Shown here: in pieces, positions 25,734 to 27,076 of the stretch
Position numbering within the stretch: the first letter of the stretch is position 1
Layout: the number at the start of each line of letters is the position of its first letter
Source of the DNA: Escherichia phage LF82-1
DNA: 64,000 nucleotides
Reading direction: 5' to 3' (one strand)
Sequence record: PV648359
Translations under genes and position numbers: made by a program
Notes under the pieces: generated by a model
What the model saw: the letters and a program-made list of their open reading frames with translations, nothing else
The model's database searches: none
Told to the model about the DNA's origin: nothing

Positions 25734-26197
25734 AATAATGGTTCCCAATCAACAATCACAATTTCTAGTTTAGTGGAATATGTATCAAGAATTTCTTCAA
25801 TGATATCCCAGTTTCCACCACCTATACCTGCACCAATTCTTGGCATGTAAATCACAGGCTTTGCTATCTTATTCTTTCCGAATTTATTTAATTCTATTAT
25901 ACAATTCATTAAAGCAGAGTACTCAAAATTAGGTCCGGGCTCAAACTGTGTATAAAGATTAAAGCAATAAGCTTTATGGGTCTTAAAATATTTTTCATAA
26001 ACCGAATAGGAACCGAGTTTAGACTCGTCTCCGAATTCGGTTTGAAGTTTATCGGCTTCTAAAATTTTTGGATAAGCCTTTGCTAATTGTCCTGCTACAC
26101 CAGCGCCCATTGTATGAAAACAATTGCACCCATGAGCAATATTATTACCTTTAGAAAACAGGGCGACAATATCGCCCTTGATATAGTTTTTAATCAC
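25730..26197 (-). CDS. macro-domain protein (ADP-ribose binding/hydrolase fold); probable GTG start
   Basis: GDIVALFSKGNNIAHGCNC…GAGVAG and C-terminal GAGIGGGNW glycine-rich loops typical of macro domains; no in-frame ATG before the domain; GTG at 26197 preceded by AGAGGA. Confidence 0.7.
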   Translation of the reverse strand: MIKNYIKGDIVALFSKGNNIAHGCNCFHTMGAGVAGQLAKAYPKILEADKLQTEFGDESKLGSYSVYEKYFKTHKAYCFNLYTQFEPGPNFEYSALMNCIIELNKFGKNKIAKPVIYMPRIGAGIGGGNWDIIEEILDTYSTKLEIVIVDWEPLL

Positions 26198-26537
26198 TTG
26201 CTGCAAGTCCTCTAGTATAAGAGTCAACTAGACGGTCCACCATAGAATTGCATGCTGCCTTATCTTTAGGTTCCGCCACCGAGCATTCTAATATTTGCCA
26301 TTTTTTATAGTATCTTTTAATTAAGGTAGACGCCTTGAACCTACTAGACGCCCCATCTTTTTCTCCGTCTTTATATGCATATAACAATTTTTGTGAAAAA
26401 TCTACTTTACACTCTTGACTTTTACCACAATAATCAGACGCCGTTCTGTTTGTATACTCCGTTACATCAGTATATGTAGTATTAGCAAGAGCGTTAAATG
26501 AAACCAAGCCAACTATTAAAGCCAACATTTTGGTCAT
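26190..26537 (-). CDS. secreted Cys-containing protein (signal peptide; T4 vs position by size)
   Basis: 115 aa; N-terminal MTKMLALIVGLVSFNALA signal peptide; ATGA overlap with upstream gene. Confidence 0.55.
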   Translation of the reverse strand: MTKMLALIVGLVSFNALANTTYTDVTEYTNRTASDYCGKSQECKVDFSQKLLYAYKDGEKDGASSRFKASTLIKRYYKKWQILECSVAEPKDKAACNSMVDRLVDSYTRGLAASD

Positions 26538-27076
26538 TCTTTTATTTCCAGTAGTTTATTTGATTTAAGGTAATTAGCCTTTTCTAGGACTTCAGAAGCA
26601 TATTTACTTCCAGCACTTGTCTTCCATCCAGCATTATATGAGGATATGGCTTTCCTTATATCCCCGTTATGTATATTTAACCAATAAGAAAATTCGATAT
26701 AAGCCCATCTTGCTGAATTAGACCGCTTAGATAGCATTTTCTTAATTTGGGCATCAGTCATATTATAACCAAGCTGGTTAATTCTTGCCCTCATTGTTGG
26801 TAGATAATTTTGGAACATTCCATACGCATGGTGACCTTTCTTATCTTTAAGATTAATACCGGCAGATGATTCCTGCCATAGTATTGCGGCCATTATGTAT
26901 CCAAGTCCTTTCTTATGCATATTTTCATGCGTTTTAAATTTTCCATCCTTAGAAAACTGTTCCCCAAACTGATAAGCATAATTCAAGTTATCGAGTTGGA
27001 CATTACTAAAAGTATGCTCGGAGCTATGTGCTGATAACGAAAGAGCAAATAGACCAGCGAGTAGTGCTTTTCTCAT
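26534..27076 (-). CDS. secreted lytic transglycosylase-like protein (SLT domain)
   Basis: 180 aa; signal peptide; catalytic-region signature WQESS … AYGMFQ; AGAGGT RBS. Confidence 0.65.
   Translation of the reverse strand: MRKALLAGLFALSLSAHSSEHTFSNVQLDNLNYAYQFGEQFSKDGKFKTHENMHKKGLGYIMAAILWQESSAGINLKDKKGHHAYGMFQNYLPTMRARINQLGYNMTDAQIKKMLSKRSNSARWAYIEFSYWLNIHNGDIRKAISSYNAGWKTSAGSKYASEVLEKANYLKSNKLLEIKE

Follow-up and report, generated by a model that had tools for sequence, protein, structure and literature searches.

The window analysed, a stretch of 64,000 nucleotides of Escherichia phage LF82-1 (sequence record PV648359), belongs to a Tequatrovirus and is 100% identical to Escherichia phage LF82-2 at the locus comprising vs and vs.1 (Table 1). 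Both open reading frames (ORFs) for which the first-pass annotation had proposed adjacent secreted proteins were found, on the minus strand, with the motifs WQESS (residues 67-71) and AYGMFQ (residues 84-89) in the larger product and four cysteines in the smaller one. Its provisional comparison with T4 vs and vs.1 turned out to be right. Indeed, the vs.1 product is 83% identical over 178 residues to T4 Vs.1 (NP_049725; PHROG 600), which has the same length, and the vs product (115 aa) is 67% identical to T4 Vs (VS_BPT4; PF26829; PHROG 1256). The gene order of the window equals that of T4, namely tk, tk.1 - tk.4 (macro domain), vs, vs.1, and regB, with vs.1 located between regB and vs as in T4. 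The neighbouring ORF (25730..26197/26227), described as a macro-domain gene beforehand, matched Pfam Macro with 28.1 bits (cut-off 22). Compared with T4 Vs.1, nothing of substance differs, the allele of the window being that of the LF82-2/APCEc01 group of Tequatroviruses; similarly, LF82-1 Vs shares its position, signal-like N-terminus, and four cysteines with T4 Vs. Both are already catalogued genes of known family assignment, and the annotation, as it stands, is a correct re-identification of them. The SLT similarity of vs.1 has been published before (Nolan et al. 2006; PMC1524935).

The regB stop and the vs.1 start are separated by a gap of just 8 nt, from which co-transcription of vs.1 with regB can be inferred. 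A promoter/terminator scan of positions 25500..30500 found 15 promoters, with 17.1 expected from shuffled sequence; as this is no better than shuffled sequence, the transcription unit is deduced from gene spacing alone. It is probable that regB, vs.1, and vs share one transcript in a pre-replicative gene block.

Table 1. Features of the vs.1-vs locus in the LF82-1 window (slashes mark candidate signal peptide cleavage sites)
Feature	Position	Strand	Remarks
vs.1 CDS	26534..27076	(-)	180 aa + stop; predicted exported GH23/SLT-type lytic transglycosylase; T4 Vs.1 ortholog
vs CDS	26190..26537	(-)	115 aa + stop; T4 Vs ortholog; predicted exported four-helix bundle
ATGA overlap of vs.1 stop and vs start	26534..26537	(-)	Read from sequence; probable translational coupling
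GAGG, Shine-Dalgarno-like element	27082..27085	(-)	6 nt upstream of vs.1 ATG; upstream reads ...CTAGAGGTAAAC-ATG
Predicted Sec signal peptide of Vs.1, residues 1-16/18	27023..27076	(-)	MRKALLAGLFALSLSA/HS/SEH; n/h/c-region anatomy
Glu69 codon, predicted catalytic acid of Vs.1 (WQ-E-S motif)	26870..26872	(-)	Invariant in 40/40 relatives
Second and third family-1 transglycosylase motifs of Vs.1, G86-M-F-Q89-N90 to S146-Y-N-A-G150	26627..26821	(-)	
Predicted Sec signal peptide of Vs, residues 1-18	26484..26537	(-)	MTKMLALIVGLVSFNALA/NTT; n/h/c-region anatomy
Vs region of two Cys pairs, then C-terminal motif	26250..26429	(-)	C37/C43 at helix 1-2 turn; C85/C96 at helix 3-4 turn

Family, fold, and predicted chemistry of Vs.1

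The assignment of Vs.1 as an SLT-type protein, made earlier from its motifs, holds at the family, motif, and fold level. Concerning the family, the window protein scored 18.8 bits against Pfam SLT (PF01464; E=1.3e-3), which is below the gathering cut-off of 21.3, and 38 out of 40 relatives matched this model at E<0.01 (best 1.3e-7). In addition, a precomputed PF01464 match is present in many relatives, and NCBI already names family members 'transglycosylase SLT domain-containing protein'; in NCBIfam, a model was found for neither Vs.1 nor Vs. Concerning the motifs, the residues W67, E69, G86, Q89, N90, Y147, and G150 were kept in all 40 aligned relatives, and the motif [WLF]xE[ST] was found in each of 107 relatives. 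The putative catalytic glutamate, on whose alignment with known transglycosylases the annotation had made its claim depend, is aligned indeed: E69 faces E505 of the Slt70 precursor, presumably E478 of the mature enzyme given a signal peptide of 27 residues, as well as E64 of MltE (hhalign, with low probabilities against single sequences), the latter of which is mutated in 'MltE-E64Q' of PDB entry 4hjy. It also aligns with the glutamate of the 'RES' motif of g-type lysozyme in a profile alignment. Further motifs of family-1 lytic transglycosylases are G-L-M-Q and A-Y-N-x-G. The GMFQ segment of Vs.1 lines up with the GLMQ motif in Slt70 and in MltE, and its SYNAG segment with AYNAG of g-type lysozyme; the invariant positions of both segments are in register with Slt70, MltE, and g-type lysozyme. 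Concerning the fold, Vs.1 was placed in the lysozyme-like GH23 fold. The family profile gave marginal matches against the PDB, those to g-type lysozymes having E ~0.5 and ranking below spurious ones to metacaspases, and single-sequence phmmer searches of Vs.1 and of Vs against the PDB gave nothing useful.

Both hydrolytic and transglycosylase chemistries occur in GH23, and the g-type lysozymes were the only PDB profile matches of the right fold, which would suit a hydrolytic Vs.1, i.e. a muramidase resembling goose-type lysozyme or a chitinase-like enzyme. Yet, the pattern E-S ... G-M-F-Q-x-x-P-T ... S-Y-N-A-G is that of the family-1 transglycosylases (Slt70 and MltE), and no acidic residue of Vs.1 stands opposite the lysozyme segments with the two auxiliary aspartates. 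In the profile alignment, the aspartate of the GWGD segment of g-type lysozyme faces a histidine of Vs.1, and the 'vdk' stretch after its GLMQ represents an insertion that is absent from Vs.1. If the aspartates of GWGD and 'vdk' are the auxiliary Asp86 and Asp97, as we take them to be, the alignment points to a transglycosylase rather than a hydrolase. Vs.1 is most likely a lytic transglycosylase, which would use Glu69 as its single catalytic acid. T4 lysis needs gene e and the holin t. According to T4 transposon data, vs.1 is non-essential and t is essential, indicating that Vs.1 is not the lysis enzyme; a main lysis role was rejected on this ground, in line with the role other than lysis that had been suggested initially. 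The annotation 'putative lysin' of some Felixounavirus homologs could be quoted for a hydrolytic enzyme or an accessory lysis factor. Superinfection exclusion, the other function suggested from the sequence, found no supporting evidence. All in all, a hydrolytic enzyme or an accessory lysis or exclusion factor appears to be an improbable identity for Vs.1.

Export signals and the cellular location of Vs

Signal peptides were judged by a crude heuristic scan that looks for a positive n-region, a hydrophobic h-region, and small residues at -3/-1 of a cleavage site. Of the 105 non-overlapping ORFs in the window, seven passed, among them RI, which is known to be periplasmic, as well as vs and vs.1. 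The same scan passed 101 of 107 full-length Vs.1 relatives and all 15 full-length Vs relatives. In both families, the sequence of the signal is not conserved, and among the Vs relatives it drifts freely; that the scan is passed nevertheless indicates that having a signal is conserved and that the hydrophobic stretch is no accident. Hence, the signal peptides assigned to both ORFs, the absence of which would have spoken against the annotation, were retained. The N-terminus of Vs.1 reads MRKALLAGLFALSLSAHS/SEH with its candidate cleavage site, and the structure models display low pLDDT at residues 1-20 of Vs.1 and pLDDT <50 at residues 1-18 of Vs. Furthermore, distant Vs.1 homologs (of Felixounavirus, Kuttervirus, Acinetobacter, Vibrio, and Slopekvirus phages) begin with signal-like segments too, and a distant Vs relative (P0129) carries a lipoprotein lipobox (LSGC) in place of the Sec signal. 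Judging from these conserved signals, both Vs.1 and Vs may be exported and cleaved.

Vs matched phrog_1256 (E=5e-35), and a protein that is 98% identical to it (P0110) carries a precomputed PF26829 ValRS_modifier match; Vs itself had no Pfam match in the Pfam copy used, which lacks PF26829. The family is tiny, with eight representatives at E<1e-3 in an exhaustive profile search of 1.84 billion proteins; no cellular homologs were found in that search, the representatives being T4-like phage in origin where checked. The AF2 model consists of helices at residues 20-37, 41-64, 69-85, and 90-113 (pLDDT >90), a predicted four-helix bundle. Vs possesses exactly four cysteines (C37, C43, C85, and C96), which are invariant in the Vs alignment (A4) and are followed by a near-invariant C-terminal motif (SMVDRLVDSY.RGL). 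The cysteine pairs are kept in relatives at 28-32% identity and in Acinetobacter phage AB-Navy1, and two disulfides are probable. Without its signal, Vs would have a mass of 10,992 Da, compared with 12.9 kDa for the precursor.

The presence of an export signal in all 15 full-length relatives, one of which is a lipobox, together with the recurring cysteine pairs, argues for a periplasmic Vs. This conflicts with the cytoplasmic role to which Vs owes its name. Traditionally, Vs is considered a cytoplasmic peptide that binds and alters the host valyl-tRNA synthetase (ValRS), in which case its adjacency to vs.1 would reflect inherited gene order, Vs.1 would be an independent periplasmic enzyme, and the hydrophobic N-terminus of Vs would be unused for export, or part of the pool would be exported. 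It is this activity that the family names refer to (UniProt VS_BPT4 'Valyl--tRNA ligase modifier'; PF26829 ValRS_modifier), and binding to the host enzyme is attributed to Muller and Marchin 1975/1977 in PMC8076793, the classical work being cited in the HIDEN-SEQ preprint as well. Moreover, the minimal-medium plaque defect would suit a role of Vs in aminoacylation under amino acid limitation. In the predicted bundle, the two turns that hold the four cysteines are at the same end, so that the cysteines might instead form a Zn(Cys)4 site, which would be compatible with the cytoplasm. Against such a function count the export signal that persists although the sequence drifts, the conserved pairing of the cysteines, and the lipobox of one relative, which would be purposeless in a cytoplasmic protein. 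The classical purified factor, said to be about 10 kDa, fits the processed form better than the precursor. Finally, full-length T4 Vs with an N-terminal His-tag was insoluble when made in the cytoplasm of E. coli, where it formed inclusion bodies (PMC8076793), an outcome to be expected of a secretory precursor that is not processed; many other causes are possible. On balance, the ValRS-modifying role is regarded here as possible but on the doubtful side. As to the earlier description of Vs as a second secreted protein, its export signal is conserved, but its export contradicts the accepted role.

Gene linkage, transposon phenotypes, and a possible envelope function

The vs.1-vs junction was adjacent or overlapping in eight of the nine lineages examined, as far as Acinetobacter phages; besides LF82-1, the genes overlap or abut in T4, VR26, phage 005, L006, L007, and Acinetobacter phage AB-Navy1, and they are not adjacent in Klebsiella phage Miro. 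Homologs of Vs.1 were detected in 2060 phage records from several families, and Vs-like genes in 795 and 365 phage records (two separate queries that may overlap), which makes the former about twice as common. This indicates that Vs.1 does not need Vs; the many phages with Vs.1 and no detectable Vs suit the traditional view of Vs. In addition, Vs evolves much faster than Vs.1 (28-32% versus 65-68% identity on the same contigs).

In the HIDEN-SEQ preprint on T4, both vs and vs.1 were non-essential, and insertions in each of them were about 10-fold rarer than in neighbouring genes (LB control means of 26.6 for vs and 22.6 for vs.1, compared with 652 for vs.3, 290 for tk.4, and 179 for regB). In M9-glucose, vs was the most depleted gene (log2FC -2.19), and vs.1 followed the same trend (log2FC -0.87; p=0.0055, adjusted 0.155). 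The latter weak phenotype could be a polar effect of the insertions on vs, which lies downstream. The poor plaque formation of a vs knockout is specific to minimal medium.

The account that we consider the likelier one, albeit well short of certain, is that of translationally coupled T4 orthologs encoding an exported, envelope-acting transglycosylase (Vs.1) and an exported Vs. In this account, vs.1 and vs would be co-transcribed with regB, probably before replication, and the ATGA overlap would couple their translation. The Vs.1 precursor would be exported by its Sec signal peptide to the periplasm of the infected cell, where the mature protein of about 160 residues, a single GH23/SLT domain, would most likely cut MurNAc-GlcNAc bonds of the host peptidoglycan and leave 1,6-anhydro-MurNAc ends. 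The expected effect is a loosened or remodelled sacculus and no lysis, and envelope remodelling is a plausible role for the pair. Vs would be exported as well, as an 11-kDa four-helix bundle with two probable disulfides; its place of action would be the envelope, and Vs.1 its most plausible partner or target. The phage may benefit by growing when nutrients are scarce, a possibility raised by the published T4 transposon data. Of this account, the analysis shows the orthology, the synteny, the fold, the aligned catalytic residue, and the conserved export signals and cysteine pairs; export and cleavage as such, transglycosylase rather than hydrolase chemistry, the early timing, the interaction between Vs and Vs.1, and the physiological benefit are what we infer here.

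A stronger version holds that Vs is not, or not primarily, a ValRS modifier and serves as a periplasmic, disulfide-stapled partner or regulator of Vs.1 in a two-gene envelope module. The ValRS association of the 1970s would then be secondary, produced by Vs that had stayed unexported or by compartments becoming mixed in extracts, and vs mutants would do poorly on minimal medium on account of their envelope or peptidoglycan physiology, not because of tRNA charging. This version is put forward tentatively, as a rather doubtful proposition. A more specific function is that of a Spackle-like regulator or inhibitor, binding Vs.1 or a GH23 enzyme of the host or of a competing phage, and restraining or targeting its activity against premature lysis. 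It is in agreement with the overlapping or abutting junction across distant lineages, the similar under-representation of vs and vs.1 mutants in T4 transposon libraries, and the fast evolution of Vs beside a conserved Vs.1, which is typical of binding or conflict interfaces. It is unlikely nonetheless, as Vs.1 homologs are about twice as widespread as Vs-like genes and mere restraint predicts a neutral loss of vs.1, yet vs.1 insertions are under-represented too.

Whatever the role of Vs, Vs.1 is a third candidate peptidoglycan-degrading enzyme of T4, with conservation that extends over several phage families and more than 2000 genomes; T4 is usually credited with two, e and gp5, as in the abstract of PMC7650644. 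For Vs, the point of interest is the conflict between its apparent location and the job stated by a functional name that is 50 years old. If both proteins act in the periplasm, the minimal-medium phenotype of vs, reported recently, would give access to an envelope function of T4-like phages that has gone unrecognised, and the annotation 'tRNA synthetase modifier' on about a thousand genomes would need revisiting.

Among known systems, the family-1 lytic transglycosylases (Slt70, MltC, MltE/EmtA, and MltF of E. coli, and small 'specialised' ones such as EtgA) are the closest in kind to Vs.1, although the identity amounts to just 13-18%. Unlike them, Vs.1 has no lipobox and no extra domains, and the asparagine that follows its GMFQ motif (N90) is invariant. 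Furthermore, Vs.1 is phage-encoded and probably made early, being part of neither the virion nor a secretion machine, whereas EtgA-type enzymes belong to secretion systems. For Vs, the comparison is with T4 Spackle (gp61.3), the periplasmic inhibitor of the gp5 tail lysozyme, a small, all-helical protein with a cleaved signal peptide, a disulfide, and no informative fold relatives. No sequence or fold relationship between the two was detected, which sets Vs apart from Spackle-like proteins, and the likeness is one of analogy only: Vs is small and all-helical as well, with a predicted signal, probable disulfides, and no informative fold relatives. Spackle acts on an enzyme of the muramidase fold in the periplasm, and binding of an enzyme by Vs is a conjecture from this analogy. 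The gene for Spackle is not adjacent to that of its target, whereas vs adjoins vs.1.

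Identity and linkage of the vs.1-vs locus

The two adjacent minus-strand ORFs delimited in the first-pass annotation were borne out by the sequence (see the table), and their tentative identification there as T4 vs and vs.1 is correct in view of gene order, sequence identity, and PHROG assignments. Indeed, the 180-aa protein shares 83% identity with T4 Vs.1 and belongs to phrog_600 (unknown function), and the 115-aa protein shares 67% identity with T4 Vs and belongs to phrog_1256 ('valyl tRNA synthetase modifier'). The T4 order (NC_000866; tk, tk.1, tk.2, tk.3, tk.4, vs, vs.1, regB, and vs.3 onwards) is identical in the window. 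The RegB gene (PF10715, E = 1.9e-68) is located 8 nt upstream of vs.1, and the vs start codon overlaps the vs.1 stop codon in an ATGA (26534..26537). With the ATG start given in the LF82-2 annotation, the tk.4 ortholog shares 8 nt with the 3' end of vs; T4 tk.4 is 'adfM', coding for an anti-DarTG2 factor, and its clean knockout makes T4 sensitive to DarTG2 (HIDEN-SEQ preprint, 2025). Across 25700..27600, the window matches Escherichia phage LF82-2 and its siblings at every position (100% identity), and many other Tequatroviruses share 98-99% identity with it. A syntenic 120-aa counterpart of the vs.6 product on metagenomic contig L006 matches PF01228.

Features of the vs.1-vs region and of compared loci (window numbering, unless a locus is named)
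Feature	Coordinates	Strand	Remarks
vs.1 ORF	26534..27076	-	180 aa; starts MRKALLAGLFALSLSAHS-SEH
vs ORF	26190..26537	-	115 aa; starts MTKMLALIVGLVSFNALA-NTT
tk.4 ortholog (macro domain), downstream of vs	25730..26197, frame extendable to TTG at 26227	-	Pfam Macro 28.1 bits
vs.6 ortholog	28379..28741	-	T4 annotation: GrcA-like autonomous glycyl-radical cofactor
RI (lysis inhibition) ortholog	24016..24318	-	signal-anchor-like N-terminus, two Cys; positive control of the signal scan
Signal/anchor scan positive	9889..10104	-	crude scan
Signal/anchor scan positive	14635..15048	-	crude scan
Signal/anchor scan positive	33382..33687	-	crude scan
Signal/anchor scan positive	41308..41493	-	crude scan
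vs.1-vs, metagenomic contig L006	3453..4327		divergent Vs types (L006, L007, L010), both behind a better-conserved Vs.1
vs.1-vs, metagenomic contig L007	3..781		as for L006
vs.1-vs, compared locus L010	1438..2288		as for L006
vs variant, Escherichia phage vB_EcoM_005 (L005)	2393..2650		85 aa, internal deletion

Both genes overlap or abut in the window, T4, VR26, F48, phage 005, contigs L006 and L007, and AB-Navy1, Klebsiella phage Miro being the only case of separation among the lineages examined. On L006 and L007, identity to the window proteins is 65-68% for Vs.1 and only 28-32% for the adjacent Vs, which argues that Vs is evolving much faster than Vs.1. Furthermore, the occurrence of two divergent Vs types behind a well-conserved Vs.1 suggests cassette-like replacement of Vs or diversifying selection on it. 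Homologs of Vs.1 were found in 2060 phage records, about twice the number with a Vs, indicating that Vs.1 does not depend on Vs.

Vs.1 as a predicted GH23/SLT-type enzyme

The proposal that the larger ORF encodes an SLT-type protein held up. The window Vs.1 alone scored 18.8 bits against Pfam SLT, slightly under the curated cut-off of 21.3, but 38 of 40 diverse relatives (41-83% identity) matched this family at E < 0.01 (best 1.3e-7), and many carry a precomputed PF01464 assignment. Residues W67, E69, G86, Q89, N90, E128, W132, Y147, G150, and Y159 are invariant in the alignment and build the E-S, G-M-F-Q, and S-Y-N-A-G motifs; in the window protein, which lacks Cys, WQESS and AYGMFQ occupy residues 67-71 and 84-89. 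An AlphaFold2 model based on the relatives' alignment was confident (pLDDT 88.6, pTM 0.82). In profile alignments with E. coli K-12 proteins, E69 was aligned to residue 505 of the Slt70 precursor, which would be mature E478 given a 27-residue signal peptide, and to E64 of MltE. In PDB entry 4hjy, MltE carries a mutation at this E64. Similarly, the Vs.1 family profile aligned E69 to the Glu of the g-type lysozyme 'RES' motif. E69 thus faces characterized catalytic Glu residues, and the misaligned Glu that the first-pass annotation had named as contrary evidence was not encountered. The auxiliary Asp residues of g-type lysozyme presumably lie in segments that are paired with a His of Vs.1 or form an insertion absent from it, which only weakly favours a transglycosylase over a hydrolase.

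This SLT/GH23 assignment is already published and catalogued. A marginal yet consistent SLT match of vs.1 across six T4-like genomes was reported by Nolan et al. 2006 (PMC1524935), who cited earlier PSI-BLAST results for T4 vs.1, and family members bear the NCBI name 'transglycosylase SLT domain-containing protein'. As genes and assignment are known, there is little new in the identification. Other Vs.1 homologs are labelled 'endoribonuclease', 'site-specific RNA endonuclease', 'T4 RegB-like', 'putative RNA endonuclease', 'C-type lysozyme/alpha-lactalbumin family', or 'putative lysin', and Vs is frequently labelled 'valyl-tRNA synthetase', the enzyme itself. The 90%-identity cluster of P0002 (a T4-type Vs.1 of 181 aa) also lists 113-aa valyl-tRNA ligase modifier proteins, presumably a clustering artefact.

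Predicted export signals and Vs fold

The signal peptides proposed for both proteins were recovered by a heuristic scan, in which an ORF had to combine a positively charged n-region with a hydrophobic core (8 or more residues, none of them charged) and small residues at positions -3/-1. It was passed by seven of the 105 non-overlapping window ORFs, including the periplasmic RI ortholog, vs.1, and vs; the other four probably encode membrane or exported proteins. Among full-length relatives, 101/107 Vs.1 proteins passed, the six exceptions looking like miscalled starts, as did 15/15 Vs proteins, despite their unconserved signal sequences. All distant Vs.1 homologs examined (Felixounavirus, Kuttervirus, Acinetobacter, Vibrio, and Slopekvirus phages) possess a signal-like start and keep the xES motif, with ET in the Acinetobacter phage.

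The Vs AlphaFold2 model is a four-helix bundle (helices 20-37, 41-64, 69-85, and 90-113; pLDDT > 90) with a disordered signal segment. Its four Cys residues flank the turns between helices 1 and 2 (C37/C43) and between helices 3 and 4 (C85/C96), which suggests two hairpin-stapling disulfides. Alternatively, they may form a Zn(Cys)4 site, since both turns lie at one end of the up-down bundle. Both Cys pairs are kept even in the pair of relatives furthest from the window Vs (28-32% identity), and in one of these, P0129, a lipoprotein lipobox (ALSGC) replaces the signal-peptidase-I site. Together with the freely drifting hydrophobic segment, the lipobox variant and the conserved paired Cys mark the Vs family as one predicted to be extracytoplasmic. 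These export features conflict with the main rival, the textbook view that Vs acts on valyl-tRNA synthetase (ValRS) in the cytoplasm, and this conflict is the point worth specialist attention. The mature Vs mass, computed with the predicted signal removed, is 10,992 Da; the purified factor is reported to be of about 10 kDa.

The family is tiny (8 representatives among 1.84 billion at E < 1e-3) and restricted to T4-like phages. The T4-type Vs, ending in SMVDRLVDSYNRGL, was found by tblastn in 795 phage records, and the second, divergent Acinetobacter/Klebsiella type (e.g., Acinetobacter phage AB-Navy1), ending in YRDQLILRYIVGL, in 365 records, which may overlap with the former. The 85-aa variant recurs in several deposited phages (phage vB_EcoM_005 and database proteins P0126 and P0153); it retains the signal peptide and second Cys pair, whereas the first pair and helices 1 and 2 are missing.

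Functional data and proposed roles

Both genes are non-essential in T4 (HIDEN-SEQ transposon mutagenesis preprint, 2025). In that study, vs was the most depleted gene in M9-glucose versus LB (log2FC -2.19, adjusted p 0), as confirmed by a clean knockout, and vs.1 showed a log2FC of -0.87 (p = 0.0055, adjusted 0.155); the biological role of ValRS modification is stated there as unknown. The minimal-medium phenotype makes the conflict between Vs location and function directly testable. Under the LB control conditions, vs and vs.1 carried about ten-fold fewer insertions (means 26.6 and 22.6) than flanking vs.3 (652), tk.4 (290), and regB (179), which could reflect a function in common or else polar effects of vs.1 insertions on vs. 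Insertions in regB, directly upstream, went the opposite way to those in vs and vs.1, being enriched in M9 over LB (Data S8; log2FC +1.17, p = 0.049, non-significant after correction). N-terminally His-tagged full-length T4 Vs formed inclusion bodies in E. coli (PMC8076793), as expected of an unprocessed secretory precursor, a behaviour far from specific.

Vs.1 is unlikely to be the main lysis enzyme, because vs.1 is dispensable and t essential in T4 (HIDEN-SEQ). The interpretation in the first-pass annotation is thus partly supported, being sound as to identity, SLT type, and export signals; for the superinfection exclusion that it also suggested, no supporting evidence was found. The best-supported reading of the sequences is that Vs.1 would be a Sec-exported, single-domain, family-1-type lytic transglycosylase acting on the sacculus of the infected cell prior to lysis, and Vs a co-translated, exported, disulfide-stabilized helical protein. 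Although comparison of Vs with T4 Spackle revealed no fold or sequence relationship, the latter is the closest functional analogy: this small helical protein of the periplasm, whose signal peptide is cleaved and which contains a disulfide, inhibits the gp5 lysozyme domain 1:1.
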